Origin: Ostreococcus lucimarinus
Taxonomy: Eukaryota
Reading direction: 5' to 3' (one strand)
Assembly: GCA_000092065.1 (NCBI GenBank)
Contig: CP000581.1
DNA: 64,000 bases
In this document: one piece after another, positions 41,285 through 64,000 of the stretch
Position numbering within the stretch: position 1 is the first letter of the stretch
How the letters are laid out: the number at the start of each line of letters is the position of its first letter
Program-made: the position numbers and the translations under genes
Notes under the pieces: model-generated
Database searches by the model: none
What the model was told of the DNA's origin: nothing
Seen by the model: the letters and a program-made list of their open reading frames with translations, nothing else

Positions 41285-41443
41285 CGCGGTAGCGATTGTT
41301 TTAATTGGGAATCATGTCAAATTCAAAGTTCTAATGTGGAAACGCGAACGTTTCGCTAAAAAGCGTGCTCTTGGAAGGATTGACGTCGCTCGTCGTCGAA
41401 GACGACGAAGTTGTAAATAAACCTCCCTTATCCCGCGTTTTTT

Positions 41444-41852
41444 TTACTTCCACCATGGAGGATTCTGGCCGGTCCGGAAGTCAGCTTCAGTCCACGGCGT
41501 AAACGTCACCACGTCGGAGTCCGTCACGACGACGTGGGCGAGGGCCAAGGAAAGTGGAGCCGGACCGCGAATCACCTTCCCGTCGGCGTTGTACTGGGAG
41601 CCGTGGCACGGGCACTTGAACTTGTTCTCGGCCTTGTTCCACGGGACGACGCAGCCCAAGTGCGTGCACACAGCGTTCAACCCGAAGTCCGTGAGGGAAC
41701 CATCTTGCTTGACGATCAAGTACGTGGCGTCACCCTTCAAGCCTTGCGTGAGCGAGTAGTCGCCCGGCAAGTGCGTCTTGAGCCATTCTCCCTTCTTGAT
41801 GTCGTTACCATTCGCGTCCTTAGCCGGTTGACCGGCGCCGCCGCCGCCGGCG
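41444..41852 (-). CDS. petC: Cytochrome b6-f complex Rieske iron-sulfur subunit PetC, exon 2 (2Fe-2S domain)
   Basis: '[135 protein letters not shown]' aligns almost residue-for-residue with plant/algal PetC (the CTHLGC and CPCHGS cluster boxes). Confidence 0.92.
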
Positions 41853-42228
41853 CTGTGCGTTCAAAACAGTTTTATCCGTCAGTCTCCTCGCGTTGCGCGC
41901 ACTATTGTTCAATCCAATCCCAAGAACGGCGTCGCGACCGTTTCGAATCGCTCCCTCAGCCCGATCGCCCGCCGCGAGGCGTCGTGGTAGAGTTTGAACT
42001 CTACGCCTGCGTCGACCGTGGCGAGATCGAGTGCCGTAGTATCGCGTGTGCTTCCCCTCCGCGCCACCGCTCTCTCGCGGTGGCGACGGCGCGGTCAGCG
42101 CAATCCATGGCGCCGCGTCCGGGTGTGGATAGATATCCCTGACCCTAGCCTAACGTTGTGCCGTCTCGCGCGATCGGATAGCGATCGCGCTCGTGGCGAT
42201 CGCGACGCGCGCGCGTCGCTGTGCGCAC
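41853..42228 (-). other. Spliceosomal intron (376 bp, GT...AG, phase 2) in petC
   Basis: On the coding strand the donor is 'ag|gtgcgc' (after 42229) and the acceptor is 'ttttgaacgcacag|cgcc' (before 41852). Joining restores '[13 protein letters not shown]', the conserved Gly-rich hinge of PetC. An in-frame TGA lies in the intron just before exon 2. Confidence 0.88.
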
Positions 42229-42470
42229 CTCGGGGGCACGAAGAAGTAGGCATAGCCGCCGATCAACGACGTCGCCGGCAAACCGATCGCACCGACGAGC
42301 AGAAGGTTCATAACGCTTCGCTTCGTCATATCCGGCACGTCCGCGGATGCGCTCGCCGCGCGGGGCACGACCGTGCGCGCGCTGCGCGCGGCGTTGCGCT
42401 TGACGGGCGCGCGCTGCGCGCGCACGCGGGTGCACCCGAGTTTTTGGGTCGTCGAGAGAGAGAACGCCAT
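42229..42470 (-). CDS. petC: PetC exon 1 (chloroplast transit peptide plus membrane anchor helix)
   Basis: '[12 protein letters not shown]...[38 protein letters not shown]' matches the PetC 'DMxKRxxMNLLLxGAxxLP...FFVPP' region. ATG at 42470. The exon ends in phase 2 with 'ccg ag|GTGCGC'. Confidence 0.9.
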
Positions 42471-42983
42471 GGTGTGTGCGACGATCACGCGCGCGAGTGA
42501 CGCGCGCGACGTCGACGGACGTCCGCGGATGCACGCGGATGGCCCCGTCGCGGACGTCGATCGTCGATCGTCGATCGTTTTTGACCCGTGTGCGAAATCA
42601 ATCACGTACATCACGGCATTCGAACGCCATGACGCTCGCGATCACGCGCGCGCGATAAAATCAATCCCGCCGCGACGCGCGTCCGACAGTCCGAGCGCCC
42701 GGTCGTCGCGCGCGGGGACGGACGTCGCTCGACGTCGCCCGGCAGACGACGGACGTCCGCGCGGACATGGCGGGGCGATGGACGATCGAGGCGCGAACGT
42801 GACGAGGAGAGCGAAACAAAGCCGAAGCCGGGCGACGACCCGGTGCGGCGCGGTCCGAGGGGCTGCCAATCGCGGCGACGGCTCGGGCGACCGAGCGCCC
42901 GCCATTGCGGGAGCGGATTGAAACAAACAATCCCGACGCGTCTTGACGCGTCTTGACGCGTCTTGACGCGCGCGAACGCCCGA

Positions 42984-43586
42984 ATGGAAGCGGTGTATGA
43001 GATGATGGGCTATCCCAAGCCCAAACGCGTGGTCGTGCTCGGAATTCAGGGCGCCGGGAAGACGAGCGCGCTCGAACGCGTCAAGGACGCGTACGACGCA
43101 AACGCCAGAGGTTTGCGCCCCGATCAAATCATATCCACTGTAGGGATGAACATAGCCAAGATCTCCAATGCCGAACTCAACGTGGAGCTCACGTTCTGGG
43201 ATCTCGGCGGCGCGTTCGGGCTGCGTGGGATTTGGGAGAGCTATTTCCAGGACGCCGACGCGTGCTTGTACGTCGTCGACGGCGCCGAAGAGCGAGCGCT
43301 GGAGGAGTCCATGGTCGAGCTTGAGCGCGCCATGCGCAACAAACGATTCTCAAAATCGATGCCAATCCTCATCATCAGCGCGAAGAGCGATTTGAGCGGT
43401 CCCGAAGGGTTGGAAATGGTTCGCGCGTCGTGCGAAGACGTCTTCGCGCGCGTCGACGGCGGCGGCTCTCGGCGTCAGACCCGCGTGTTCCCGGTCGATT
43501 GTCGCACGGGACTAGGGGTAAAACCCGCGATCGAATGGCTCGCTCGCGCCCTCGCGCCGTCTTCGTCGCTGTTTAGTTTGTCATAG
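42984..43586 (+). CDS. ARFRP1: ARF-family small GTPase, ARFRP1-like
   Basis: P-loop 'VLGIQGAGKTSALE', switch region 'IISTVGMNIAKI', G3 'WDLGGAFGL' (Ala where Arf-family has the catalytic Gln), G4 'ISAKSDL'. No N-terminal Gly-2 (as in ARFRP1). The first ATG is 42984 (the track start 42963 is TTG). Confidence 0.75.
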   Translation: MEAVYEMMGYPKPKRVVVLGIQGAGKTSALERVKDAYDANARGLRPDQIISTVGMNIAKISNAELNVELTFWDLGGAFGLRGIWESYFQDADACLYVVDGAEERALEESMVELERAMRNKRFSKSMPILIISAKSDLSGPEGLEMVRASCEDVFARVDGGGSRRQTRVFPVDCRTGLGVKPAIEWLARALAPSSSLFSLS

Positions 43587-43816
43587 CGCGTCCCTGGCGC
43601 GGTGTAAAATTTCTCGTCTCAGTCTCTCGGTCGCTTCGACGTCCGTGTTTAGCTCCCTGATGTGGATAGCGTTCCGTTGGATTTTCGCGGTTCAGGAACG
43701 GCGAGACGGACCGCGACTCGTGTTGACGCCATTTGTTCGCGCGCGCGGCGCCGCGTCGCTCGCGTCGTCGTCGTGAATTGCGACCTTGATCGTTTGATCG
43801 AGTGCGCCGCGTAGCC

Positions 43817-44974
43817 ATGGTGTCTGTCGCCGTCGCTCGTCCGCGCGTCGCGCACGCGTCAACACACGCGCGCGAGCGGCGTCAACGCGCGAGCGGCGCG
43901 AGACGCTCGAACGCGCCGCGCGCGTTTTTGGCGTCGTCGACGGCGGTGCACGCGAACGATGCGTCGTCGTGCGCGATGCTGAAACGCGCGAGTTGGAGAG
44001 GTAAATATGCGCTGAATGTGCGCGCGTCGTCGACGTCGAGCGCGTCCGAAGTGGCCGATCGCAACGGCGCCGACGGTGGCGGTGAAGCCAACGGGTCGGC
44101 GACCACCGGCGCGGGAACCTCCTTCACCGCGCTTGACGATTCGTTTCGCGGATTAGAGGGCACAGAATGGTTTTCGCGTGATTTCTCCGAGAGTGGCAGA
44201 CGATTCAGTGAGGTTTTTCCCGTGAGATTCGCCGAAGTGGGTTCCAACGGCGAGGCGACCATGGTGACGATAGCCGACTTGATTCAAGAGTGCGCCTGCA
44301 ATCACGCGCAAGGTATCTGGGGTGTCGGTCAATCTATGCCGGCGGAGATGGCGCGAGCAAACTTGGCGTGGGTGTGTACCAGACTTCACTTGCGCGTGCG
44401 CAAGTACCCGAAATGGGGGGAGAAGGTTGCGGTGAGCACTTGGTTCGAACCTCAAGGGAAGATAGCGGCTAGGCGCGACTACGCCATCACGGACGCGCAA
44501 ACTGGAGAATGCATGGGCGAAGCGACGTCGCAATGGGTTGTGTTTAATCTCGGGAGTCGAAGAATGGCGCGCATCCCGAACTCGGTGTTGGAAGATTTCA
44601 AATTCCAATCCTTGCAGCAACAGGTGATGGAGGAAGGATACGCCGCGGATAAGCTCCCAGACGTGTCTGAAGTCGGGGGAGCGTGCGCGGCTCCCATCAC
44701 GCATAACGTGCGCCGTAACGACATGGATATGAACGGACACGTAAACAATGTCGTGTACGTTCAATGGCTACTCGAGAGCGTGCCCCCGGAAACGTGGGAA
44801 AAGCACGTGTTGAGTGAAATTATCTTGGAGTATCGATCCGAGTGCAACTTTGGCGACAGCGTCACGGCGACGTGCTGCGAGATTGAAGAGGCAAACGATA
44901 CCTACGTGCTCCTACATAAATTAGCGCGAGGCGAGGGTGAAATAGTTCGAGCAAAGACGGTCTGGAGGAAGTAA
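43817..44974 (+). CDS. FAT: Plastidial acyl-ACP thioesterase (FatA/FatB family, PF01643)
   Basis: Transit-peptide-like N-terminus, then tandem hotdog folds with 'ADLIQECACNHAQ', 'WVVFNLGSRRMARIP' and the catalytic region 'RRNDMDMNGHVNNVVYVQWLLESVP' characteristic of FatA/B. Confidence 0.85.
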   Translation: MVSVAVARPRVAHASTHARERRQRASGARRSNAPRAFLASSTAVHANDASSCAMLKRASWRGKYALNVRASSTSSASEVADRNGADGGGEANGSATTGAGTSFTALDDSFRGLEGTEWFSRDFSESGRRFSEVFPVRFAEVGSNGEATMVTIADLIQECACNHAQGIWGVGQSMPAEMARANLAWVCTRLHLRVRKYPKWGEKVAVSTWFEPQGKIAARRDYAITDAQTGECMGEATSQWVVFNLGSRRMARIPNSVLEDFKFQSLQQQVMEEGYAADKLPDVSEVGGACAAPITHNVRRNDMDMNGHVNNVVYVQWLLESVPPETWEKHVLSEIILEYRSECNFGDSVTATCCEIEEANDTYVLLHKLARGEGEIVRAKTVWRK

Positions 44975-45103
44975 AGACAAAGTAGCGCGAGCGATAATAT
45001 CTCGGCGGTGGCGAAGCATCGAACGACGTGTAAATGAAAATAGCAAACGACGCGACTGCGCATTCCTTCGCCACACATCACCACTTCGCTACGCGCGGCG
45101 ACC

Positions 45104-46936
45104 ATGTACCCACGCGTGGATGCCTCAATAGCCCTGTCGTGCGTCTGCGTGTTCTCATTGTCGGTACTCGCGCTCGCTGTCGAGTGTGTTGGAGACTTTG
45201 TGAACGACGTCGAACGACTCGCACAGTGTGAGTCCGTTGCTGGTGGCAACCTAACTTTCTCCAGTGTCGACGAAGTCATCGGACCTCGATTGCGTTACAT
45301 CACCAATGGATCGATCATCATCACAAACGTGTCTAATTCATCCATTCTATTTCCACGCCTGTTGAGCGTTCACGGTGGCTCCGTGCGTGTTCACGACTAC
45401 GGCGGTCGGTTGAAGCGTCTCGAAGGATTTCATGCGCTTGAATTGATTGAGGGAGATCTTGAGATTTCTGAGGCCCCAAACTTGACTGGCTGGGATGCGT
45501 TCACGTCGCTGTCGCGGGTCACTGGAAGTGTGACGCTGAAAACGCTCGCAATTGCGACGGTGGGGCTTCCATCTCTCATGGATGTGGGCATATTCACAGC
45601 TCGCGGTTTGCCTGCGCTCAACTCGCTCAAAGGACTCGAAAATCTTCGTTCGGTGAGAAAACTAGAACTGGACTCCGAATACGAATCATGGTCGTTCGGT
45701 GAGTGTGGATCGATAAACGTTACCGCCACGCCGCCAGTGCGAAACGTGTGCAACGACTCGCACATGACGTGCGTGGATAATCGATGCGTTGAAACGCTCT
45801 TGTCGACGCTCGCAAACGCGATAGAAGTTCGAACATTTACGTCGCTCGTTCTTCACGATGAACTCTATAGTCGGCGATTTCAGACTATATCGGGACACGC
45901 GATGACGACCGTGTTCGCGCCGAAAGACATAGCCTGGTACCATCGAAACTTGACGACTCCCGCTCGCGCGACCGCAGCAGAGCGCTCCGATATCATCGCG
46001 GCGCACGTGGTAATGAGCTCTTCCAATCATGCGCTTCGACATGGTCAGCGCCTAATCACCGATTTGGGCGTCAAAGAGGTAATGGTGAGTGCGTCTTCTG
46101 ACACTGTTGCACACTCGCTTGTCGCAATCGAAACGGGACGTCGTCGGATCGTGCTCGGCGGATTTCCGGTGAAAGAGACGCGTTGTAGAGTGTACGGTAC
46201 CGCAACGTTTTTTTGGAAAGAGTGTCTACCATCCATGTACACGGAAATAATCGTAAAATCGTCGGATGCCCGACTAGGCGTGGAGAGCAAATTTTCGCGC
46301 GCTGAGCAATCGATAGGACCTATATTTGCCTCACTCGAGAGCCGCGCTGATGGAGACGACGCGTTCTCGGAGGAAGACTTGGATTTCGAAGAAGAGTACG
46401 TGCGCGCGCTACTGTTTGACGAAATCATAGCGCCGTCGTCGTCATCGTCGTCATCGTCGTCCGCATTCGCGTCGAACTCGAACGTGCACGGCGCTATCGT
46501 GGATTCTGCTAGAAGATCATCCAACGGAATCGTACTCATCGTGGATGGAACCTTGTTTCCGAGAAGACTTGACAGAGTGCCTGCGCCGCAGGCAAACGGT
46601 TCGAGCTCGCCGATTCCATCGCGTCCACCGCCGACGCCGACGCCACAATTTTTGTCTCCACCGTCACCACCAGCTCAAAGACCACCGCCACCAATCCTTG
46701 GTTCATTCAATCCAATATATTGGCAAACACGCCCGCCGCCTCCGTCCGCAACTGCTGGAAGTGCGCGCGAGCCGCCGCCGTCACCACCTCCTTCAAAAGG
46801 CTCGTGCCTCGCGGTGCTTCCAAATATTTGCGGGCTGTGTGATTTCACGGACGACGCCGCACCGTGCTGCTGTGACAGTGAGTGCGCGCAAACTGGAGAT
46901 TGTTGTTCGGACTATGCCGTGGTCTGCCTGTCGTAG
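45104..46936 (+). CDS. Secreted glycoprotein-like protein: signal peptide, N-glycosylation-sequon-rich beta-solenoid/receptor-L-like region, Pro-rich linker, C-terminal Cys knot
   Basis: Signal peptide 'MYPRVDASIALSCVCVFSLSVLALA'; many NxS/T sequons ('NGSIIITNVSNSS'); 'PPPTPTPQFLSPPSPPAQRPPPPIL'; C-terminus 'CGLCDFTDDAAPCCCDSECAQTGDCCSDYAVVCLS'. Confidence 0.5.
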   Translation: MYPRVDASIALSCVCVFSLSVLALAVECVGDFVNDVERLAQCESVAGGNLTFSSVDEVIGPRLRYITNGSIIITNVSNSSILFPRLLSVHGGSVRVHDYGGRLKRLEGFHALELIEGDLEISEAPNLTGWDAFTSLSRVTGSVTLKTLAIATVGLPSLMDVGIFTARGLPALNSLKGLENLRSVRKLELDSEYESWSFGECGSINVTATPPVRNVCNDSHMTCVDNRCVETLLSTLANAIEVRTFTSLVLHDELYSRRFQTISGHAMTTVFAPKDIAWYHRNLTTPARATAAERSDIIAAHVVMSSSNHALRHGQRLITDLGVKEVMVSASSDTVAHSLVAIETGRRRIVLGGFPVKETRCRVYGTATFFWKECLPSMYTEIIVKSSDARLGVESKFSRAEQSIGPIFASLESRADGDDAFSEEDLDFEEEYVRALLFDEIIAPSSSSSSSSSAFASNSNVHGAIVDSARRSSNGIVLIVDGTLFPRRLDRVPAPQANGSSSPIPSRPPPTPTPQFLSPPSPPAQRPPPPILGSFNPIYWQTRPPPPSATAGSAREPPPSPPPSKGSCLAVLPNICGLCDFTDDAAPCCCDSECAQTGDCCSDYAVVCLS

Positions 46937-47200
46937 TACAGTAGAAGAGATCTGAATTAGAGCAAAGTCAGTCGCGTGCGGTTGAGCGGATCGCTTGCTT
47001 TCGGAAAATGCGTTTTGTCGTCTCATGCGTCCTTTCGAGGACGGAATATGCTGATTTCATCGATCGCACAGCCTAATTACCAGCGCACAACCGTCATCTA
47101 GCGATACTGATCATCAGTGGGTCATCATTAACGTCGCGTTTGCTCGAGTTGTCGTCCCCTCGCTTCCCGCACCTTGGATTTAAAATATTTGAACCGACCG

Positions 47201-49237
47201 CTACTTTTTATACTCGTATTCGATGCGCAAACGCCGCTCCGTTCCCTCACCGACGGCGCTATGACTTAGCATGTACGTGTCCACCAACGCCTGTTGCATT
47301 TCGATGATGCGTCCCGATCGAGGCAATAGCTCGACAGGCTCGCGATGGGGAATGACGAGCTGCTCGACGGCCATGCGCACCTCTTCCAGGGCATCCGTTT
47401 CATCCGCGCTCGACGTAGTCGCTCGCTGTCTATTTTCTTGAGCACCACTTCCTCCGTTAAATCCATCACTTGCACCCGTTATGCCTAACATGGCTTGCAA
47501 AGCGCGAACGAGCTGCGCCGAGTTATCTGCCCGCACGGCGTAAATCGGCATACCTCGCGCTCTAGCCGCGTGTCGTAGCCACGTGGACGTCTTCACTTGC
47601 GATTTTGGCGCAATGACCACGCTCGCGTCTTCAAGAAGGTCAACCAAGCACACTCGATCACCCAAGTCCATGCTCTCCATGACGCGCTCCAGAGCGTCGC
47701 GACTAACTTTGAACGGAAACACTCGAAGAGCGTGCGGAGGGCACGTGTTGTCGTCTTCGTCGTCTTCGACGTCGTTCACGATGACGTCTTCGCCGCCGAG
47801 TTCGAAACGCGTGTTATCCACAAACTGTTGCGTCGTCGACGATGATCGACGTCGCGATGCGCTTGCGATTTCTAAAGCCGCGAGCTCAGAGCTCGATCGA
47901 GGCTGGACTTTTTGCGCCGTCGGTCGAGGCGCCGTCGCGTCGTACGCTAGGATTTCTCCAAGAACGCTCGCCTTTCGGCGACTTGTGTACTCTGCCTCCG
48001 TCGTCACCGTTCCATCTTCGTTCAGAACGCGTAGTTCGGTCATCGGCGACTGCCCCGCGAGTAAAGCGTCGACAGAAGCCGCGACGTCGGTGTGAACTCT
48101 CCAAGTGCCGATGTCGAGCATTTCCACGGCGATGGTAAACGTTGGTGGACCCGCCCTTTCGAGCACACTCTTCTGGACCCCTCGTCTACGTGCTTCGTCG
48201 TCGCCAAGAGTGACGCTCACAACACCACCTATCAAATCACATAACGCCGGGTTCTTCAAAACGTTCTCCAGCGTGTGTCCGTGCGCCGTACCAATCATCT
48301 GCACGCCTCGCTCGCTGATGGTTTGCGCTGCGTCCGCCTCTTGCTGCGTGCCGATTTCATCAACCACCACCGTCTGGGGCGTGTGATTTTCCACGGCTTC
48401 GATGAGCACGAGATGCTGTTCGCTCGCGTTCGGGACTTGCATTCGACGGGCACCACCTATACCGCGATGGGGAACGTCGCCGTCGCCCCCGATTTCATTT
48501 GACGTATCAACGATGACGACACGGCGAGAATGCTCATCCGACAGAATGCGAGAAATCTCTCGAATAGCCGTCGTTTTTCCTACACCAGGCCGTCCGAGAA
48601 GTAGTATCGAATTATTAAACGTCGTCACCGACGTTTCGGCGTCCAAAACGTCCCTGATAAGTTCGGCAGAACCCGAGATCGCGCGTCCGACTCGACACGT
48701 CGCGCCGATGACTTTGCCGTAACGATTCTTAATCGCGCTTATTCTGTGCAAAGTCCCGTTGATACCCGCGCGATTATCTCGTCCGACGTCTCCAACCTTT
48801 GTCATCATTCTATTCAAATCTTCGTACGTCACGAGCTCGTCCCCGATTGTGGCATCGCCGTCCGGAAACCGCGCCTTTGGTAGTCTTCCCAAGTCGAGCA
48901 CGACTTCGGTGAGCTCGAGCCTTCGCGCGTCTTCCGCCAACGCCCGTCGCACGCGCTCGGGCGCCGCGTCGAGCAATAGCGCAATTTCTTTTTCGCTCGT
49001 CACCGCCGCCAGCGTCGCTCGCTTTCGAGCGGCGAGCACGTCCTCCTTCGTCAACGCCAACGCGCCCGCGCTCGAGGACGTCGACGTCGCGTCGTCGGCG
49101 TCGTCGACGGCGTCGCGCCGCGTCGCGCGCCGAGGGCTGGCGCGGCGCCATCGCGCGCTTCGTCGTCCCTTAGTCCACCCGTCGCACCGCGCGGACGCGG
49201 ACGCGGACGTCGACGTCGTCGTCGGCGCCCCCCGCAT
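47201..49237 (-). CDS. ycf45: P-loop ATPase of the SpoIIIAA / Ycf45 (SPD1-like) family, organelle-targeted
   Basis: Walker A 'LLLGRPGVGKTTAIREISRIL', Walker B 'TVVVDEIGTQQEA', 'GVQMIGTAHGHTLENVLKNPALCDLIGGV'. The start is uncertain (ATG 49237 chosen; the track start 49522 would overlap the divergent transporter gene). Confidence 0.6.
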   Translation of the reverse strand: MRGAPTTTSTSASASARCDGWTKGRRSARWRRASPRRATRRDAVDDADDATSTSSSAGALALTKEDVLAARKRATLAAVTSEKEIALLLDAAPERVRRALAEDARRLELTEVVLDLGRLPKARFPDGDATIGDELVTYEDLNRMMTKVGDVGRDNRAGINGTLHRISAIKNRYGKVIGATCRVGRAISGSAELIRDVLDAETSVTTFNNSILLLGRPGVGKTTAIREISRILSDEHSRRVVIVDTSNEIGGDGDVPHRGIGGARRMQVPNASEQHLVLIEAVENHTPQTVVVDEIGTQQEADAAQTISERGVQMIGTAHGHTLENVLKNPALCDLIGGVVSVTLGDDEARRRGVQKSVLERAGPPTFTIAVEMLDIGTWRVHTDVAASVDALLAGQSPMTELRVLNEDGTVTTEAEYTSRRKASVLGEILAYDATAPRPTAQKVQPRSSSELAALEIASASRRRSSSTTQQFVDNTRFELGGEDVIVNDVEDDEDDNTCPPHALRVFPFKVSRDALERVMESMDLGDRVCLVDLLEDASVVIAPKSQVKTSTWLRHAARARGMPIYAVRADNSAQLVRALQAMLGITGASDGFNGGSGAQENRQRATTSSADETDALEEVRMAVEQLVIPHREPVELLPRSGRIIEMQQALVDTYMLSHSAVGEGTERRLRIEYEYKK

Positions 49238-49400
49238 CGCGCGTCGCCGTGTGTCGCGGCGTCCCGCGCGCGCTCGGACCGCCGGACCGCGGGCACGAGG
49301 CACGACTGACTCGCGCGCGTCACAACGCGCGCGCGCGACGAAGGCGACGCACCGACGCCTCGATCGCGTCGTCGGCGTCGTCGTCGAAGTCGCCGTCGCC

Positions 49401-50399
49401 ATGGGCTCGCCCGGCGGACGCAGCGCCGTCGTCATCGCGTGCTGGTACACCGCCAACGTCGGCGTGCTGCTGCTGAACAAGTACATCTTATCCGTGTATG
49501 GGTTCCGATTCCCGGTGTTCATGACGCTGTGTCACATGTGCATGTGTTCGGTGTTATCCGCGGCGGCGAGAGAGTTTAAGATCGTGCCGAAACAGTTCAT
49601 ACGGACGAGGCGACACTACGCCAAGGTGGCGGTGCTGGCGGTGACGTTTGCGCTGTCGGTGCTGGGAGGAAACGTGTCTCTGAGGTACATTCCAGTGAGC
49701 TTCAATCAAGCGTTGGGAGCGACGACACCATTCTTTACGGCTATTTTTGCGTATCTCATGCTGCGTAAGAAGGAAACGACGGCGACGTACATGACGCTCA
49801 TCCCCGTCGTCGGGGGCATAGCCGTGGCGACGTGGGGCGAGCCGAGTTTCAATTTTATTGGGTTCTGCGCGTGCCTCGTCGGGGTGTGCTGTCGAGCGTT
49901 AAAATCGGTGTTACAAGGATGGCTACTGACTCCAGCGGGGGAAAAGGAGGCGGAGAAAATGTCCAACTCGAACGAGAACAAGCTCGACAGTATGTCGCTT
50001 CTGTACTACATGTCGCCGGTGGCCATCGTGACGCTCGGAATTTGCACTTTCATCATGGAACCAGACGCAATATCGGCATTTTATGACGCGGCTGAGATGA
50101 ATCCGCCATTCATTGCCATTCTCTTAGGAAACTGTTTCGTGGCGTATCTCGTCAACCTGACGAATTTTCTCGTCACGGCGCACGTCGGCGCGCTTTCGCT
50201 TCAAGTTCTCGGCAACGCGAAGGGCGTCGTGTGCACTATCGTTAGCATCATGCTCTTCCGTAACCCGGTGACGTTTCGCAGCGTAGCTGGATACACGATT
50301 ACTATGGTCGGTGTTTGGCTTTACTCGTCGAGCAAGCGGCGTAGCGCCCGTTTGCAGGTCATCGAGAACGCCAACAAAAACTTAGCCTCAAAGGTGTAG
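49401..50399 (+). CDS. TPT/NST-family (drug-metabolite-transporter superfamily) sugar-phosphate or nucleotide-sugar transporter
   Basis: About 10 TM helices. 'CWYTANVGVLLLNKYIL', 'SFNQALGATTPFFTAIFAYLMLRKKET', 'ALSLQVLGNAKGVVCTIVSIMLFRNPVT' are hallmark TPT motifs. ATG at 49401. The last 33 codons lie inside the 398-bp inverted repeat. Confidence 0.8.
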   Translation: MGSPGGRSAVVIACWYTANVGVLLLNKYILSVYGFRFPVFMTLCHMCMCSVLSAAAREFKIVPKQFIRTRRHYAKVAVLAVTFALSVLGGNVSLRYIPVSFNQALGATTPFFTAIFAYLMLRKKETTATYMTLIPVVGGIAVATWGEPSFNFIGFCACLVGVCCRALKSVLQGWLLTPAGEKEAEKMSNSNENKLDSMSLLYYMSPVAIVTLGICTFIMEPDAISAFYDAAEMNPPFIAILLGNCFVAYLVNLTNFLVTAHVGALSLQVLGNAKGVVCTIVSIMLFRNPVTFRSVAGYTITMVGVWLYSSSKRRSARLQVIENANKNLASKV

Positions 50400-50696
50400 C
50401 GCGATGATTCTCTTCCTGTTACTCGTTCTTTGCGTGTCGTTTCACTTGTATTTCGGTCTTCTAAAGGCGCGAGTCTAAATACTCGATTCTAAAGGCGCGA
50501 GTAATCTAAGCTTTCGTCGTCTGAAGACGCTTCGAACTCGCGTTCGTACGCGCGTGAGCCGTTTCCGTAAGCGCGCGGCGCTTCGTCGGACTCCTCATCG
50601 CTCGAGCCATGCCGCGACGATCCAGCCGATGTCGCCATCTTCATACGCGCTGTAGCGCTTTCCACTCGCGACCGCTGACTATGCACTCGCGCAACA
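50299..50696. repeat. Inverted-repeat copy A (398 bp), reverse complement of 63293..63690
   Basis: Every segment I compared by eye is identical between the copies, including the reverse complement of 'tagattactcgcgcctttagaatcgagtatttagactcgcgcctttag'. Copy A contains the transporter 3' end on + and the channel's last 69 codons on - (track ORF 50489..50686). Confidence 0.85.
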
Positions 50697-50773
50697 CACG
50701 ACCTCGCGTCGGCGTCGGCGTCGAGCTCGTCGCGCGAATCATCTCGAGGGTGCCATCATCGTCTTCTACACGC

Positions 50774-55802: not shown

Positions 55803-57866
55803 CTATGGCGCCGCGTCTCGTTTCGTCGCTCTCGCCTGTATGTTTTTCGTCAACTCGGCTTGAATCTCGATCAATTCGGCGTTCATGCGCGCAATGTGCT
55901 GTCTTCGCAGTTCTTCCGTTTCAAACGACCCCTTCATAGCCTTGCGGACGCTTTCAGGAGTGTTGTCTCGCACCAAAGGTACGATTGAATCTCCAATGGC
56001 GTCCTCTAAAGCTTCGTACGTCGGCTTCCAAGGCGCCGGCACGGCGTCGTCGAGGCGACTCTTGAACCGTCGGAGCTTGGGCATGAGCGGCGGCGCCGCC
56101 TCCTCGATATTCATCTTGATGGTCTCGAGTCGCTTTTTGAGTTGTTTCATTCGCTCCACTTCGTCAAGCGTCGCTTCAACGCGCATAATTTCCTGCTGAA
56201 TCTTAGAGAGTCGGCTCGCTTTGTCCTCCTCGGTAGTCAAGAGCGCGACGTCGTCGGGCTTGCGTCGCACGAGAAGGCGCACGATGCGCTCTCGAACGCT
56301 CTTTCTCCCAGACTTGAGGTCGTTCTGCCTCGCCACATACCTGCGAACCGCACGTCGACGTTTCTGAGTACCTCCGCGCGCGCTCTGTAGCGCTCTCGTC
56401 AGTTCTTCCTCCTCCTGGCGCTTCTTCGCTAACGTTTGGATGTCCATCGGTCCGTCTGTGAGAATGGTGAATCGCCCCTTTGGAATCTCCTTGAAGTTCT
56501 TGTTTACCACGCGCTTTTCACGGTCCAACGCAGCGTACGCAGCGGCATCCAAAGTGCCTGAGTTGGAGATGGACGCACTCGCTCGCGCTGACGCCCATTT
56601 CCGCTTCTCGTACGATACAACTCGCGTCGTCGGACCGGGCAAGCCGCTCTGTCGGCGGAGCGTGTTGCGCACTTGGCGACTCAGATTCCCCACGGCCGGT
56701 CCGCCGCAAAAGTAAACCCATGGAATCCACGTGGGGATTCCAAGGATATCTGGATGAGAGTACGAATACAGATGACCGTAGTTGATCAACACGATTTCCG
56801 CCACGGGCCCGCACACCGCGGTTAAACTAGCCATGAACAGTCCCTGCGCGCTGTTGTCGAAGAAATACCACGTCGTCACCGCCCATACGCACAAAAATAT
56901 ATCAATCAAATGGTACGGCAGGAAACCATCCACGAAGGGCGATTGCGGCGACGCCAAAATTCCAGAGACGAGGTATTGAAACGCAAAGACGCTGATGCAC
57001 AGATTGACGCTCACCCAGCTCGGCTGCCAACCCAAAGCGGGCTTGCCTTTTGCATTTTCAATCAACTCTGACGTCCTACTCACGATTTGTTCGGTGCCTT
57101 GGAGACCTTTTCGTATCTCAATCTCTCTCGCGCGCTTCACCGACGAGCGAATGCGAAATTCATCGAGACTTGTGTGCCCGAGACCGATGACGATTGCCGC
57201 GGCGCCAAACAGCGGTGGCACCCACCACCCAGTCTCTAAAACACCATTTTCGTTCACAAACATGATTCGAAACAGGTCCTTCACCGGTTCGGGGGCTATG
57301 AAATTCATGATTGGACCGAACGGCGAGTTCCACAACGGTGCGAATAGGGCATCAAAATGAATTTGCAACGGCGTCGCGTAGTGCAACACGTCGAATCGCG
57401 AGTGTTGGTGGTCGAGTAAAGGCCCCAATATTGCCCCCGCCACGAACATCAACGCCACTTCGTTCGCGAACGCGACGCGCTCGCGCTCGACTTCTTCTTC
57501 CACGATCTCTGGCGTCATCGCCGGAGCGCGTCCCGTGACACCGGCCAACGCATTTCTCTTTCCGTCGTCGCCGTCGCCGCCGTTCGTCGACGTCGCCGTC
57601 CCGCTCGCCGGAGCACCTCCCGTCTTCACGACGCGCGACACCACGCGCGCGGCGTCTTGTCGACGCGATAACGCTTCCATCTCTTCCTCTCGCTTCGCGC
57701 GTTCTCTCGCGCGTCGCTCGCTCTTCGCATTCGTCGTCGACGACGCCGGCGTCGGCTCGGATGTCGCGCGCGCGACGACGCGCGCGCGGGCGTCGTCGCG
57801 CGCGCGACGTCGCGCGCGCGCGTCGGCCGGCGCCGAGACCGCGCGCGCGACGACGCCCGCGCGCAT
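55803..57866 (-). CDS. Hypothetical polytopic membrane protein with C-terminal coiled-coil, transit-peptide-like N-terminus
   Basis: Several hydrophobic helices ('LMFVAGAILGPLL', 'WVPPLFGAAAIVIGLGH', 'VSVNLCISVFAFQYLVSGIL', 'LIDIFLCVWAVTTWYFF'), then ~250 aa of charged heptad-like sequence. The track start 58010 is GTG; the first ATG is 57866. Confidence 0.45.
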   Translation of the reverse strand: MRAGVVARAVSAPADARARRRARDDARARVVARATSEPTPASSTTNAKSERRARERAKREEEMEALSRRQDAARVVSRVVKTGGAPASGTATSTNGGDGDDGKRNALAGVTGRAPAMTPEIVEEEVERERVAFANEVALMFVAGAILGPLLDHQHSRFDVLHYATPLQIHFDALFAPLWNSPFGPIMNFIAPEPVKDLFRIMFVNENGVLETGWWVPPLFGAAAIVIGLGHTSLDEFRIRSSVKRAREIEIRKGLQGTEQIVSRTSELIENAKGKPALGWQPSWVSVNLCISVFAFQYLVSGILASPQSPFVDGFLPYHLIDIFLCVWAVTTWYFFDNSAQGLFMASLTAVCGPVAEIVLINYGHLYSYSHPDILGIPTWIPWVYFCGGPAVGNLSRQVRNTLRRQSGLPGPTTRVVSYEKRKWASARASASISNSGTLDAAAYAALDREKRVVNKNFKEIPKGRFTILTDGPMDIQTLAKKRQEEEELTRALQSARGGTQKRRRAVRRYVARQNDLKSGRKSVRERIVRLLVRRKPDDVALLTTEEDKASRLSKIQQEIMRVEATLDEVERMKQLKKRLETIKMNIEEAAPPLMPKLRRFKSRLDDAVPAPWKPTYEALEDAIGDSIVPLVRDNTPESVRKAMKGSFETEELRRQHIARMNAELIEIQAELTKNIQARATKRDAAP

Positions 57867-58082
57867 ATTCGCTCGAACCCTCGCTCGCGGCGCGTCGCGT
57901 CGCGCACTCGCGTCGCGCGGCGCGCGCGCACCGACCAACGGCTGCGGACGCCCGCTCGGGGCGCGGAACGTTCGTCTCCGAAAGGGCGCATTGACGATGG
58001 CGAACGCCACGTCACGTCGCGCGCAACTTCACTCGCGCAGGTCAGGTGACACCGTCCGCGGCGCGTCCGCGGCGCGCGATCG

Positions 58083-58086
58083 ATGG

Positions 58087-58124
<38 letters not shown>

Positions 58125-61100
58125 TCGCCGCACGCGTTCTCCCCGCACGCCGCGGGCGGGGGGCTTTCGGAGGGCGATGGCGACGGCGCGAGGAAAAGTG
58201 GCGCGGCGTCGCGCGGGACCGCGCGAAAAGCGTACGAAGGCGCGAAACAGAGCGTGAAGAAGGCGTACGCGCGCGTGTACGACGACGAGCGGAGCTTGTT
58301 GTGCTTTAGCGACGCGTCCAGGGTGCGACAAATGTGCGCGAAAATCGCGCGAGCCACGAGCTTTCAGGTGTTCGTTTTCGCCGTAGTGGCGCTTAACGCC
58401 GCTGTGTTGGCGATGGAACTTCCCGAGCGCGCCTACGTCGCTCGAGGAGGCTCCGTACCGCTGACCGCGGACGGGTCGTGGGCGTTGCAAGTGGTTTTTG
58501 TCGTCGTCTTCGCGTTCGAAGCACTGGTGAAAGTTATAGCGAGTGGCTTCGCCATCGGATCGAAGGCGTACTTGACGGAGCGAAGCAATATTTTCGATTT
58601 CGTCGTGGTTGTGGTTGGGATCGTAGACTTGAGTAGCTCAGGCTCGAGCGGAGTCGGGACGCTGCGACTGTTGCGCACGATTCAGCCCCTTCGAGCGCTG
58701 AACAAATTCAAATCTGGAAGAATGGTTCTAGAGACGATTCGGAAATCGATTCCGCTCTTGCTCGACGTCGTGGTATTCATGTCGTGGTTCGTGATCGTTT
58801 GCACCGTAGTCGGTATGATGTCGTTCGGTGGTCGCTTGAACTCGCGAGAGTATTCGGGCGCCGGGTCGTCAAACGTCGCGGCGACGGCGATTTGTAGCAC
58901 CCTCGTCGCCGACTACCCGACGTCGGCCGCGGCGAGCGCGGAAAGCCCAAATTATCCTTCAGATGAGCTGCTATGCCTGAATCGTAGAAAGAATACGCTC
59001 GTCTCGAACGATACGTATTGCTGCGATTCCGGCGTGTCACCCGTCGACGGCTTCGTCAACTTTGACGATTTTGCCAAGGGTGCGTTTGTCGTTTTACAAA
59101 TTATGACGGTCGATGGATGGAATGAGATCGCATGGCCTACCGCGCGGGCCGCTGGGACGGCGCCTGCGTTGATATTTTACTTCGTTGTCGTTCTCATCGG
59201 AGGTTTCTTTGTGCTTCAACTGTTCACGTCGGTCATTTGCGCGACGTTGAGTGACATCGAAGATGAAAGCGCCTCGATGGATTGCGAGACGCTCGGTGAT
59301 GGCGCGACGGGCCTTTCACAAATGTTCGAATCAACGCGACCCTCGGTTTACTCGAAGTCATTCTTGAGCGGCGTTGGATCAACACTCTCGTCGTTCAGGT
59401 TGCCAGGTCAGGATGAAATTGATGGTTCCGAGGGCATGCAGAAGTGGCGACTCAAGGCACTCGCTCTCGTCGCTGACGTTCGATTCGAGTCTTTCGTGAA
59501 CATCACCATTATACTGAACACATTTACGATGATGTCAGTGACTGCAGAACCGAATCCGTCGCTGGAGCTATTTAGAGAAAACGCCGAGTACTTCTTTTTC
59601 GCGGTGTTTTGCTCCGAGTTTGCGCTGAAACATTTTGCTGTCGGACCCGTAGCGTACTGGAAGACGACGTGGAATCGACTGGATGGCTTGGTCGTTCTCT
59701 CCGGTATAATTGATATGACACTATCAGCTATAAGCTCTGGATCTGGCGTGAACCTGTCCTTCCTTCGCATACTGCGCGTGTTGAGAGTTTTGCGCATTGC
59801 GCGCGTCTTTCGTAGGAGTACGAGCTTTCAGAAAATATTGCGTGCGGTCGTACTAGGAGCGCAGCGTATTTGGGTGTTTTTATTGGTATGGGCAATCTTC
59901 ATGATTATGTTTGCGATCCTCGGTACGCAGCTCTTTTCTGCGAAAGGTGATTTGGACGATGAGAGATTGAATTTCAGAGACTTTTTTTCGTCCATCGTGA
60001 CGCTCTTTGTGGTGAGCACGGGCGAGAACACGTTTGAAGTCGCTTGGGGCACTATGAAAGCTGACGGTGACGCGGCGGGACTTTACATGGTCGTTTGGTG
60101 CTTGATCACGACATCGATTTTGGCGCTCGTACTTGGAATTCTTATCGATTGTGTCACCGAAGAAGGTAAAGTTGCATCGATTATCACCATGAAAGTTCCG
60201 CGACGAGAGCGCTTTGCGCGGGAAATGGCTAAATCCATGGGGTTTGACGAAGACGACTTCCCTGAATGGGTTCATCTCAAAGCAAACGAGGCGTGGACAA
60301 AGCGCAATCAAGAGCGCTCGAGGGCGAAGAGCGCAACGGAAGCAGGTTTAGGTCTCGATGAAGACGAAGAGAAGACAGACAGCGACAGCGACAGCGACGA
60401 CGACGAAGTCGAAGGTGATGAAGTAGCGCTACATGTGTTTGGCGATCCGTTCGAGGCGAGGCGCTTGCGCAAAGAACGAATCGCTCAAATGCGACGCGTC
60501 CACGAAGTTGCGGTCGTGCGACATTGGCTCGTGACGCTAGGTTATGAGCATCACTCTGCGAAATCGCTCGAAGTCGCGAAGACGATGCGGCGGCGATCCG
60601 TGATAAAGGCTCGCGAGCGACTGGCCAAGTCGCACAAGGCGAACGAGTTGAAGCGTCGAGCAATTGTTGACAGCATCAGCGCCAAACTTTTGGATCGTGA
60701 TGACGTCGATGCGAGTCGCTTAGTTCCACTCAGCGTCCGCTGCATCATGAAAAAGGACGAGGACTTACACGCAGACCTCAACTTGATCGACATCAACGGC
60801 GACTTTATTCCGCATCATGCCCTCTTTCCCGACAACGACCCCGTAGCTGAGGCGGAATCGTTGGTGCATTACGTGCGAAATGATAACTTTCGTATAGCGA
60901 TGTCATTTTACGGCATTGATGAATCCGACGAAAGAGACCAACTAAGACTCAAGGCGCTTCGCTTCGTGAAGCATCCTTGGTTTGACGTTGTCGTATTGCT
61001 CTTGATTGGTGCGAGTTCAGTATTGCTCGCCACGGAAACGAACTCGTTTCCAGCGGCTGACTCGAATATGGAACGGGTATACTTGATTCTCGATATTTGT

Positions 61101-63500
61101 TTCAACACATGCTTCACCATCGAAATGTGTTTGAAACTGTTTGGGCTTGGGGCGTGGAGGTTTCACGGGTCGTACTTCAAGTCGAAGTTCAACATCATGG
61201 ATGCCGTTGTGGTCGTCACTTCGTGGTTGATTGTCTTGCTTGGCGACGCTCTGCCAATACGATCGTTACGCGTTGTGAGGGTTCTACGTCCTTTACGATC
61301 GGTTAAACGAATTAAGGGGTTGCGAGTCGTAGTCGAAGCCATCATGTCTTCACTGCCGGCGATTTCATCCGTGTGCGTGGTCGGCCTCGCGATGCTCACG
61401 ATGTTGTCAGTGCTGGGTATGGAGTTGTTTCTGGGCAAGATGCATCGTTGCACGAACACCGCGGTGACTGTTGCGAATAAAACGCAGTGCTTAGCGGCGG
61501 GGGGAGTTTGGCGAAAGGCAAAGTTTAACTTTGATTCCTTTCCGGAGGCTTTCCTCAGCGTGTTCATCATCGCTACCGGCGACAATTGGCAAGACCTCAT
61601 GTACGAAGCGATGGATGTCGTCGGCGTAGATCAAGAACCTATCCGAGATAACGCCAAGTGGGCGTGCGTTTACTTTTTCGTATCGATTCTCTTTGGCTTC
61701 TTGCTCTGGGCAAATCTCTTTGTGTCGGCGCTCATCGACAATTTCAATCGTATCGCACACGACGAGAACGACGGCAAGCTGCTTGTCACCGATGAGCAAC
61801 GCGTGTGGCAGCAAGCAATGTTACTCGCCACGGTGCACGCTGACAACTCTTGGCGTAGATCATCACCGGAAACGCCCTGGAAAGCCGTCGTGCATGGCGT
61901 AGTGTCTAAGTATACCTTTGACGCGTTTTCCGTCTTTATGATCGTACTCAACATGGTCACGATGATGGCAATACGCGCGAACCCGTCGAAATCTGAGGAC
62001 GACTATCAAGTTTGGATGGGAAACACGTTAGCGATCTGGTACATGCTTGAGGCTTATCTTTTGATCGTCGCCATGAAGTGGAAAAATTACTGGCAGAGCG
62101 GTTGGAATAAGATCGATTTCATCGTGGCAGTTAGCGGTGTCGTCGGTCTACTCATCCCGGATGTTTACGAGAGTGGCGTTGGTGGAGCTTTCCGTATGCT
62201 GAGATTTTTGCGATTGTTTAAAATTGTTCAGGTGAGCAAAGGTCTGCGAACACTTTTCGCGACATTCTTGTCGGCGATTCCTGGAGTCGTCAATGTCGCG
62301 CTTTTATCTCTGCTGTTCATGTACATCTATGCTTGCCTCGGTGTCGCACTCTTTGGCGACATGTCTTCAGATTACCTCGGCGCTGCACTTTCGGAGTACT
62401 CAAACTTTGTGACGTTCCCAAAAGCGATGGTGAGTCTTTTTGTGAGTTACACTGGAAATTGGCAAGGATACTTCACCGACATTTACGTCGACGATCGCTG
62501 TTACGAAAACACATCGCTACCGGCTAATGTGACGTGCTCTCCCCGCTACGTGAGCATATTTTATTTCGTCACGTACGTCATCACGAGCGTCTTTTTCCTT
62601 GGGAACTTGTTCATCGCCATTATCCTTGAGCGATTTAGCTTTTGTGCCTCAGAAGAAGAAGGTGTGGGTGGCAGTGGCGAGAGCAACTTTCTTTACGCCA
62701 CGATGACGTTGAAGCGTGTGGCGCGTCAAATTTCTCGTAGCGTACGCGAGGCGACCAAGCTCGCGCCGAGCGAACGGCAAGATGCATATGTTGAGAAGCG
62801 TCGGGCGCGTTCGAAGGCAGGCAGCGGCACTGCGACGCCGAGCACGCCGCATTTGAGCAAGAACAATAGCATTCAGCGCGCGAGCACGGCGAGCACTACG
62901 CCGGCGTCTGCATCGCCGCATGGCGATTTCGATCCGTTCGATGATCCAACCGATGAAGTCATCGATACTGTGCGATCCAACCTTGAAGAAATTCGCGCTA
63001 AAACGCAGTCTCCGATCGCAGTCGAAGACGATCTCGACTTTGAAGACGTCAAGTCTGCGCTGAGAGACGCGTTGCCAACCCAAGACGCGGCGTCTCTTTT
63101 GGCGGCGGCGAACGCCGTTGATCGACTCGTGCGTTCGCGCAGTCGCTCTCGAAGCGTTAGTCGGGGACGCACAAGGGTATCATCTGCAGGTGATATGGCT
63201 TTTGAAGATGTGAACCGAAGCGACGACGATGATGGCACCCTCGAGATGATTCGCGCGACGAGCTCGACGCCGACGCCGACGCGAGGTCGTAGTGTTGCGC
63301 GAGTGCATAGTCAGCGGTCGCGAGTGGAAAGCGCTACAGCGCGTATGAAGATGGCGACATCGGCTGGATCGTCGCGGCATGGCTCGAGCGATGAGGAGTC
63401 CGACGAAGCGCCGCGCGCTTACGGAAACGGCTCACGCGCGTACGAACGCGAGTTCGAAGCGTCTTCAGACGACGAAAGCTTAGATTACTCGCGCCTTTAG
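58083..63500 (+). CDS. Four-domain voltage-gated cation channel (Cav/Nav/NALCN superfamily), 1805 aa, single exon
   Basis: Four S1-S6 repeats. S4 voltage sensors: 'LRLLRTIQPLRALNKFK' (I), 'LRILRVLRVLRIARVFRRS' (II), 'IRSLRVVRVLRPLRSVKRIKGLR' (III), 'FRMLRFLRLFKIVQVSKGLR' (IV). Pore loops: 'QIMTVDGWNE', 'VSTGENTFE', 'IATGDNWQD', 'SYTGNWQG'. ATG verified at 58083. The last 69 codons lie inside repeat copy B. Confidence 0.9.
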
Positions 63501-63690
63501 AATCGAGTATTTAGACTCGCGCCTTTAGAAGACCGAAATACAAGTGAAACGACACGCAAAGAACGAGTAACAGGAAGAGAATCATCGCGCTACACCTTTG
63601 AGGCTAAGTTTTTGTTGGCGTTCTCGATGACCTGCAAACGGGCGCTACGCCGCTTGCTCGACGAGTAAAGCCAAACACCGACCATAGTAA
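63293..63690. repeat. Inverted-repeat copy B (398 bp), reverse complement of 50299..50696, abutting the subtelomere
   Basis: Contains the channel's last 69 codons on + and, on -, the exact 3' end of the TPT transporter gene (the 'TITMVGVWLYSSSKRRSARLQVIENANKNLASKV*' coding sequence). Confidence 0.85.
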
Positions 63691-63828
63691 GGGTTCCGGG
63701 AAGGATGCGAATGCTAGTGACTTTTTTAGGGTTTAGTACGACGCAGAGAGACTAGGGTTAGGTGTAATAAGTATTAGCTAGTCGGTCGGTTACGGCACTT
63801 CTCCCGAAGCGCCTCCCTCCCTCATGCG

Positions 63829-64000
63829 TAGGGTTTAGGGTTTAGGGTTTAGGGTTTAGGGTTTAGGGTTTAGGGTTTAGGGTTTAGGGTTTAGGGTTTA
63901 GGGTTTAGGGTTTAGGGTTTAGGGTTTAGGGTTTAGGGTTTAGGGTTTAGGGTTTAGGGTTTAGGGTTTAGGGTTTAGGGTTTAGGGTTTAGGGTTTAGG
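63829..64000 (+). repeat. Telomere, (TTTAGGG)n, about 24 units, running to the window edge
   Basis: Perfect 'gggttta' heptamer array. The G-rich strand runs 5'->3' toward the window end, the orientation of a right chromosome terminus. Plant/green-algal repeat type. Degenerate telomere-like units lie at 63735..63775. Confidence 0.95.

Follow-up and report, generated by a model that had tools for sequence, protein, structure and literature searches.

A telomere-proximal four-domain cation channel gene of Ostreococcus lucimarinus with three filter carboxylates and a shortened domain IV pore loop

Gene and domain architecture

[quoted passage not shown] The gene is a complete open reading frame (ORF) of 1805 codons at 58083..63500 on the plus strand, with an ATG start and zero internal stops; all channel features described below lie on the same strand. 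Its collinearity with orthologues of 1799-1859 aa shows the gene to be intronless. A Pfam scan of the whole protein returned Ion_trans and PKD_channel only, with four Ion_trans stretches (PF00520) at E = 1.6e-177, a score that for a 5.4-kb ORF is far beyond chance. Neither IQ (PF08763) nor GPHH (PF16905) was reported in that scan, and the Na_trans_assoc, Na_trans_cytopl and IQ domains of animal matches were not detected in the channel protein. The closest matches in the Protein Data Bank (PDB) by sequence are Cav3.2 (7.5e-122), Nav1.7 (2.6e-112) and Cav3.1, with NALCN much weaker (5e-31). Taken together, the ORF reading and the Pfam, PDB and homologue comparisons bear out an earlier note on this DNA, which had described an intronless, complete channel of four repeats of six transmembrane segments (4x6TM), domains I to IV (DI to DIV), with a voltage sensor in each.

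Every voltage-sensing fourth segment (S4) carries four to seven basic residues, spaced every third position. The DI S4 (58665..58712) contains R195, R198, Q201, R204, K208 and K210, and the DII S4 (59766..59816) contains R562, R565, R568, R571, R574, R577 and R578, with six Arg at every third position. The DIII S4 (61260..61316) has five Arg and two Lys, namely R1060, R1063, R1066, R1069, R1072, K1075 and K1078, and the DIV S4 (62193..62240) has R1371, R1374, R1377, K1380, Q1383 and K1386. The turret cysteines number 4-0-2-2 in loops L5-I, L5-II, L5-III and L6-IV, and the DIII-DIV linker is short at ~55 aa; according to Fux et al. 2018 (PMC6259924), all eukaryotic 4x6TM channels share this cysteine pattern and a short linker of ~53-57 aa. 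Within the linker, residues L-L-V-T (aa 1233-1236; 61779..61790) align with IFMT at the position of the Nav inactivation latch and fit the hydrophobic-hydrophobic-hydrophobic-Thr/Ser pattern of Nav1 and Nav2 channels, as the motif is defined in PMC5824947.

Selectivity filter

To assign the filter residues, we built one profile hidden Markov model (HMM) per repeat from 60 animal Nav/Cav sequences with four P-loops in the correct order. The pore motifs TVDGW, TGENT, TGDNW and (Y)TGNW, all quoted in the earlier note, are present at aa 342, 646, 1165 and 1456, respectively. The profile alignment is free of gaps in DI, DII and DIII and places D344, E648 and D1167 on the filter column, so that the D, E, D reading of the first three domains was confirmed by domain-specific profiles, as was a one-residue deletion in DIV. 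In DI, the T-V-D-G-W loop (59106..59120) has D344 at the filter and E348 at filter+4. The DII loop, T-G-E-N-T-F-E-V-A-W (60018..60047), has E648 at the filter and a neutral residue, N649, at +1; T650 falls on the +2 column in place of the conserved Trp, a replacement that the earlier note passed over while quoting the motif correctly, and E652 (+4) and W655 (+7) stand as in Nav DII (GE-WIETMW). In DIII, T-G-D-N-W (61575..61589) supplies D1167 at the filter and D1171 at +4. Three repeats thus each contribute a carboxylate at both the filter and filter+4 levels, and DIV contributes neither.

The DIV loop, Y-T-G-N-W (aa 1456-1460; 62448..62462), is one residue shorter than canonical. In the alignment to its cognate profile (t-s-e-g-W against T-G-(gap)-N-W), the filter column is the one left empty in 21/21 family sequences, with reduced posterior probability, and the gap column differs among three profiles, giving three columns. 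We therefore scored all single-gap placements against a profile of 196 DIV P-loops from which clade members had been excluded. Deletion of the filter column scored best at 18.3 bits, 1.4 bits above the placement with Asn on the filter and +1 deleted (16.9 bits) and 4 bits above that with Gly on the filter (14.3 bits); a gap further upstream in the first pore helix (P1) scored 12.6 bits. No placement scored puts Asp or Glu on the DIV filter, each leaving an uncharged residue or nothing there. The segment F-V-S-Y-T-G-N-W-Q-G-Y-F is devoid of Asp and Glu, and the first acidic residue lies eight positions past the filter column. On these sequence comparisons, the ring is best written D/E/D/(deleted). 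Asn in DIV, the assignment made in the earlier note, is an acceptable alternative, being one of two near-equal placements of which the profile slightly favours the other.

This ring (D, E, D and none) matches neither the EEEE ring of Cav1/Cav2 nor the EEDD ring of Cav3 with its Asp at DII +1, the channel having Asp in DI, a non-acidic DIV and Asn at DII +1. The Lys of Nav1, found in DIII of DEKA or in DII of DKEA, is absent, with D1167 and E648 at the two sites. NALCN and fungal Cch1 combine an EEKE/EKEE or EEEE ring with charge-poor S4 segments, whereas the ring here is free of Lys and the S4 segments are charged. The D/E/E/(A,G,S,T) ring of Nav2/CaV4 is equal in charge pattern, but DIII has Asp and DIV has a deletion, with Asn or Gly possibly at the site. 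The earlier claim that the ring falls outside the known classes thus holds for EEEE, EEDD, DEKA and NALCN, and for DEEA if taken literally, but overlooks the charge pattern shared with the Nav2 rings DEEA, DEEG and DEES. Because those rings also combine three carboxylates with a neutral DIV, selectivity is less open than had been claimed. The general arrangement of P1, turn and second pore helix (P2) with Trp at +2 in every repeat is kept in DI and DIII; DII departs from it by a Thr at +2 and DIV by being one residue short. We regard the departure in DII and DIV as a deviation from a conserved feature and not as exclusion from the family. In the channels figured in PMC6259924, the only domain without the Trp of the +2 ring is DI of Cch1p.

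Several known channels share parts of this pattern. Like our channel, the Nav2/CaV4 channels (DSC1, BSC1, NvNav2 and honeybee CaV4, with DEEA, DEEG, DEES or DEET rings) have Asp in DI, Glu in DII and an acidic residue in DIII, with DIV uncharged; filter+4 of DII is Glu, and the short linker between DIII and DIV holds a hydrophobic latch. They differ in that DIII is Glu and that DIV carries Ala, Gly, Ser or Thr where the residue is lost here. The DII +1 residue, retained as Asn, is missing in both Nav1 and Nav2, while the +2 Trp is what DII of our channel lacks. Cav3 (T-type, EEDD) provides the best PDB match, Cav3.2, and shares the DIII Asp, and the DIII G-D-N-W of the channel equals the Cav3 DIV motif TGDNW; in contrast to Cav3, however, DI is Asp instead of Glu, DIV is devoid of Asp, DII +1 is Asn against the Asp of all animal Cav channels, and the latch is of Nav type. 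Nav1 (DEKA) is of comparable similarity (Nav1.7, 2.6e-112) and likewise has a DI Asp, a DII Glu, an uncharged DIV and a short linker with a hydrophobic-triplet-Thr latch, but the lysine that serves as the defining determinant of Na+ selectivity is missing from both DII and DIII of the channel.

Predicted structure

We modelled parts of the channel with AlphaFold2 (AF2). The DIII-DIV half-channel model had a predicted local distance difference test score (pLDDT) of 77.5, with a TMq of 0.41 and a root-mean-square deviation (rmsd) of 25 Å against real channels; it was set aside as a basis for interpretation, being not natively packed. The three-domain DII-DIV model (pLDDT 74.4, predicted TM-score 0.67), a prediction from a 36-sequence alignment with DI left out, was in register with Nav1.5 and Nav1.8 (TMq 0.60, rmsd ~7.6 Å) despite ~250 disordered linker residues. 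In this model, the DII turn T-G-E-N lies between the end of P1 at S645 and the start of P2 at T650, and the DIII turn G-D-N between the end of P1 at T1165 and the start of P2 at W1169. The canonical P1-turn-P2 of DIII appears in both AF2 models. DIV is different: DSSP assigns a single unbroken helix to aa 1445-1468, running through Y-T-G-N-W at pLDDT 84-90, and the P1/P2 helix of DIV is unbroken in both AF2 models. The predictions suggest that the shortened DIV forms no normal filter turn.

Conservation, phylogeny and selection

One homologue in the protein database is 87% identical to the channel and another, a partial sequence, 99%; more distant are ten homologues of 52-58%, six of 37-48% and two of 33-34% identity. 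All keep the four pore motifs, down to 33% identity, with the variants TGEDSF in DII, AGDDW in DIII and YTGGW in DIV. An exhaustive HMMER search with DIII-DIV over 1.84 billion cluster representatives gave 14,054 matches. Among the best 150 of these, the D/E/D/gap pattern is confined to the top-scoring group, within which we found a third variant, (L/M)-S-G-N-W; the other rings are mostly EEEE (83), EEDD (11) and EDEE (8). Of 208 channels from outside the clade, 207 have Trp at DII filter+2 and none shows true loss of the DIV filter column, the lone exception to each being an alignment artefact.

A neighbour-joining (NJ) tree of 83 sequences over 560 DIII-DIV columns, with 300 bootstraps, recovered the whole clade at 100% and its subfamilies YTGNW, YTGGW and SGNW at 89%, 100% and 100%, respectively; deep nodes are weak with NJ. 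The DIV deletion and the DII Trp-to-Thr replacement mark, in the sequences compared, one clade with three deep subfamilies, and given the support for clade and subfamilies the DIV deletion and the loss of the DII Trp are therefore old, shared and retained traits. In this tree, the clade falls outside the Nav clade: its neighbours at the next node are the protist sequences P0202, P0207, P0208 and P0240, and not the Nav2 representatives P0080 and P0085. These four outgroup sequences have the non-canonical rings Q/N/D/L, Q/S/D/D, Q/A/D/D and E/S/D/D, and filter constraints may be relaxed or altered in this region of the channel tree. The YTGGW subfamily (P0019, P0020 and P0197) has Asp at DII +1 (TGEDSF), as in animal Cav channels, where the YTGNW subfamily has Asn, and its DIII-DIV latch reads TFAT or TFVT as against LLVT; judging from these residues, the two paralogues may differ in selectivity and inactivation.

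The family has been catalogued before. Pozdnyakov et al. 2018 (PMC5824947) compiled 277 four-domain channels, with O. tauri contributing five, O. lucimarinus three, Bathycoccus two and Micromonas 13. In Table S2 of that paper, the S4 strings of 'Ostret4' (O. tauri XP_003074718.1) and 'Bathyp1' (Bathycoccus XP_007508934.1) closely resemble those of the channel in all four domains, and both are likely orthologues on the strength of these strings. A hydrophobic latch in the DIII-DIV linker is listed there as well, with PLMT in Ostret4 where the channel has LLVT. P0020 contains an exact copy of the DII S4 string of 'Ostrel3' (O. lucimarinus XP_001422214.1), which makes the YTGGW subfamily an O. 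lucimarinus type, and the S4 strings of 'Microp5/Micros4' (Micromonas) are like those of the SGNW subfamily. These matches suggest that the three subfamilies are mamiellophycean and were part of the 2018 catalogue, and the clade appears restricted to Mamiellophyceae (Ostreococcus, Bathycoccus and Micromonas); the exact O. tauri or Bathycoccus strings of the table were found in none of the fetched family members. The text of that paper, as distinct from the filter calls in its Fig. 3, to which this statement does not extend, does not discuss the clade's filter, the DIV deletion or the loss of the DII Trp, and takes up a different prasinophyte clade with Arg/His filters.

Against the sister-species orthologue, on contig L001, the ratio of nonsynonymous to synonymous substitution rates (dN/dS; Nei-Gojobori) is 0.23 overall at a synonymous divergence (dS) of 0.26. 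It falls to 0.14 in DI, 0.20 in DII, 0.17 in DIII and 0.08 in DIV, and is 0.34-0.55 in the termini and long linkers; a higher value is seen only in the DIII-DIV linker, whose 30 codons contain very few substitutions. A complete MMETSP transcript lies within one orthologue's cluster. Given this transcript and the dN/dS of 0.08-0.20 in the membrane domains, the channel gene is not a pseudogene; these comparisons indicate that it is intact and selectively maintained.

The protein ends in Y-S-R-L (63486-63497), and Leu is the last residue in every full-length homologue read (SRL, GQL, EQL, GIL, DVL, DRL and FRL). PDZ-type C-terminal ligands are frequent in 4x6TM channels (Fux et al. 2018), and the Leu-terminal end could be one. 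The likeness of -SRL to the peroxisomal targeting signal PTS1 is probably a coincidence.

Chromosome end

The channel is the last intact gene before the telomere within the window. A perfect (TTTAGGG)n run occupies 63834..64000 (plus strand), up to the window end, and starts 333 bp past the channel stop codon, in line with the earlier estimate of about 330 bp. The 3' end of the gene lies in a 469-bp inverted repeat whose arms (50299-50766 and 63690-63222) are 99.6% identical and bracket a terminal block of ~13 kb. The telomere-side arm (63222..63690) holds the last 282 bp of the ORF and 187 bp downstream, including a 119-bp 3' fragment of a TPT-family transporter gene (63570-63688) that sits between the channel stop and the telomere and is 97-98% identical to both repeat copies on L001. 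The inner arm (50299..50766) includes a stray copy of the last 94 codons of the channel (50486-50766, minus strand), which adjoins a full-length TPT-family transporter gene. Short degenerate telomere-like pieces (tttagggtttag and ctagggttagg) occur at 63725-63765, on the inner side of the true telomere run and ~70-110 bp away from it.

The block has a collinear counterpart of ~13 kb in the sister species (L001 788-13673), bounded by a 775-bp inverted repeat of its own and opposite in orientation relative to the telomere. The (CCCTAAA)n run with which contig L002 of that species begins lies at the other side of the block, and the channel 3' end abuts genes that lie inverted at window 40618-50419. 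The terminal block is flipped between the two genomes, through either recombination between the repeats or assembly ambiguity, and the chromosome end looks like an invertible segment or one whose orientation is ambiguous in one assembly. The earlier statement that the gene is the last on its chromosome consequently holds for the orientation of the O. lucimarinus window and not for that of the sister species.

Upstream, an INSIG-domain gene (55803-58010, minus strand) is divergent from the channel gene; the two genes are 263 bp apart on L001, and the gap between them is probably a shared bidirectional promoter region. The fraction of G and C reaches 0.71 (57500-58500) across the short gap to the INSIG-domain gene and the beginning of the channel ORF, where an (SP)n N-terminus is encoded.

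Discussion

We propose that the gene encodes a voltage-gated, probably fast-inactivating channel (LLVT latch) of an apparently mamiellophycean clade, with Ca2+/Na+ permeation like that of Nav2 (DEEA) channels, and give this statement as a whole a probability of roughly 0.55. That the product is a functional voltage-gated four-domain cation channel is close to certain; mixed Ca2+/Na+ permeation with fast inactivation is an even bet. Depolarisation would open the channel, and the LLVT latch would bring about Nav-type fast inactivation. The asymmetric ring of three carboxylates would act like the Nav2/CaV4 ring (DEEA, DEEG or DEES), conducting Ca2+ with substantial Na+ permeability; DEEA, DEEG, DEES and DEET rings have been described as calcium-selective or non-selective (PMC6259924). 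Two DII residues, the neutral Asn at +1 and a Glu at +4, may shift the channel to the Na+-permeable side, a neutral non-glycine residue at filter+1 marking the sodium-permeable class in Spafford's scheme (PMC10120453). In the cell, the channel would convert membrane depolarisation into cation entry for signalling. Since the family is present in non-motile Ostreococcus as well as in the flagellate Micromonas, this role is not tied to flagellar control.

Several points weigh against this proposal. Current has been recorded from no family member, and our literature search turned up no work on the function of a prasinophyte four-domain channel. The ring is an unreliable guide to selectivity, given that, among DEEA channels, honeybee CaV4 has been called a Ca2+ channel and others are non-selective, and through the DIV deletion and the missing DII Trp the pore is unlike that of every tested channel. 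If the unbroken DIV helix of the models is real, DIV may add no normal re-entrant filter turn, and the analogy with DEEA could fail. Nor does an inactivation motif guarantee fast inactivation, as NALCN carries one (PMC5824947). The transcript evidence, moreover, comes from the cluster of an orthologue.

A more radical version, which we consider improbable, is that the DIV deletion and the DII Trp-to-Thr replacement together define a structurally distinct pore class in which DIV has no normal re-entrant filter turn and only three repeats coordinate ions. Selectivity or conductance could then be of a kind unseen in characterised four-domain channels, for example a lysine-free Na+ preference or a wide non-selective pore, and the clade would be a natural test of how much of the pseudo-tetrameric ring is required.

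Among the alternatives to Nav2-like mixed permeation, it is conceivable, if doubtful, that the channel is Ca2+-selective in practice, with the three filter carboxylates and a second ring at +4 (E348, E652 and D1171) binding Ca2+ tightly, as reported for honeybee CaV4. Six carboxylates over the filter and filter+4 levels would suit such a pore, DEEA-type rings have been placed with calcium-selective pores (PMC6259924, PMC4436565) and the description of honeybee CaV4 as a Ca2+ channel (PMC10983803) concerns a DEEA ring. However, DIV is uncharged at both levels, DII +1 is Asn where all animal Cav channels have Asp, and retention of that Asp in the paralogous YTGGW subfamily (TGEDSF) suggests that selectivity has diverged between subfamilies.

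A Na+ preference without a filter lysine, brought about by the neutral DII +1, the Nav-type Glu at DII +4 and the uncharged, shortened DIV, is unlikely. The DII sequence E(0) N(+1) T(+2) F E(+4) V A W(+7) matches Nav DII in its +4 Glu and +7 Trp, the +1 residue falls in the sodium-permeable class of PMC10120453, and the DI Asp, DII Glu and hydrophobic-triplet-Thr latch are Nav-like; yet three carboxylates normally let Ca2+ through, and a Lys in DII or DIII, absent here, is described as necessary for animal four-domain channels to be highly Na+-selective (PMC6259924).

We consider it very improbable that the gene is a decaying or silenced subtelomeric pseudogene, or that its product is a voltage-insensitive leak channel of NALCN/Cch1 type. 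The telomere is 333 bp away and the 3' end of the gene lies within a recombinogenic inverted repeat, but the 1805-codon frame is intact and collinear with orthologues, motifs are conserved to 33% identity, the membrane domains evolve at a dN/dS of 0.08-0.20 and an orthologue is transcribed, so that an untranscribed pseudogene, raised as a possibility in the earlier note, is contradicted by purifying selection and the transcript. As to a leak channel, all four S4 segments are rich in Arg and Lys, unlike those of NALCN and Cch1, and NALCN matches at 5e-31 against 7.5e-122 for Cav3.2.

Finally, a canonical filter with four acidic domains, its odd DIV reading being an alignment artefact, has next to no chance of being correct: posterior probabilities are lower near the DIV turn than elsewhere and three profiles give three gap columns, but no rigorous alignment yields a DIV Asp or Glu, F-V-S-Y-T-G-N-W-Q-G-Y-F has its first acidic neighbour at +8, and an uncharged residue or nothing occupies the DIV filter in every scored placement and every clade sequence covering DIV, so that this candidate is already refuted by the sequence itself.

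The channel is a further member of a catalogued algal clade, and variable protist filters are already documented; the filters of about half of non-animal channels, prasinophyte ones included, show 'experimentation and divergence' (Fux et al. 2018, PMC6259924). The significance of the finding is limited accordingly, and with protist filter diversity known, the DIV deletion and the loss of the DII Trp come as no large surprise. Both nevertheless merit targeted electrophysiology. As the channel gene is intronless, it can be synthesised directly for expression, and an Ostreococcus P2X channel has already been expressed heterologously, in a paper listed among the references of PMC11085791. Four-domain channels underlie fast Na+/Ca2+ signalling, and how asymmetric filters control selectivity is still debated. 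The clade is a natural variant in which the contribution of one repeat is gone, with DIV devoid of both a filter residue and an outer carboxylate and with one of the four inter-repeat Trp anchors missing, and yet it is strongly conserved.

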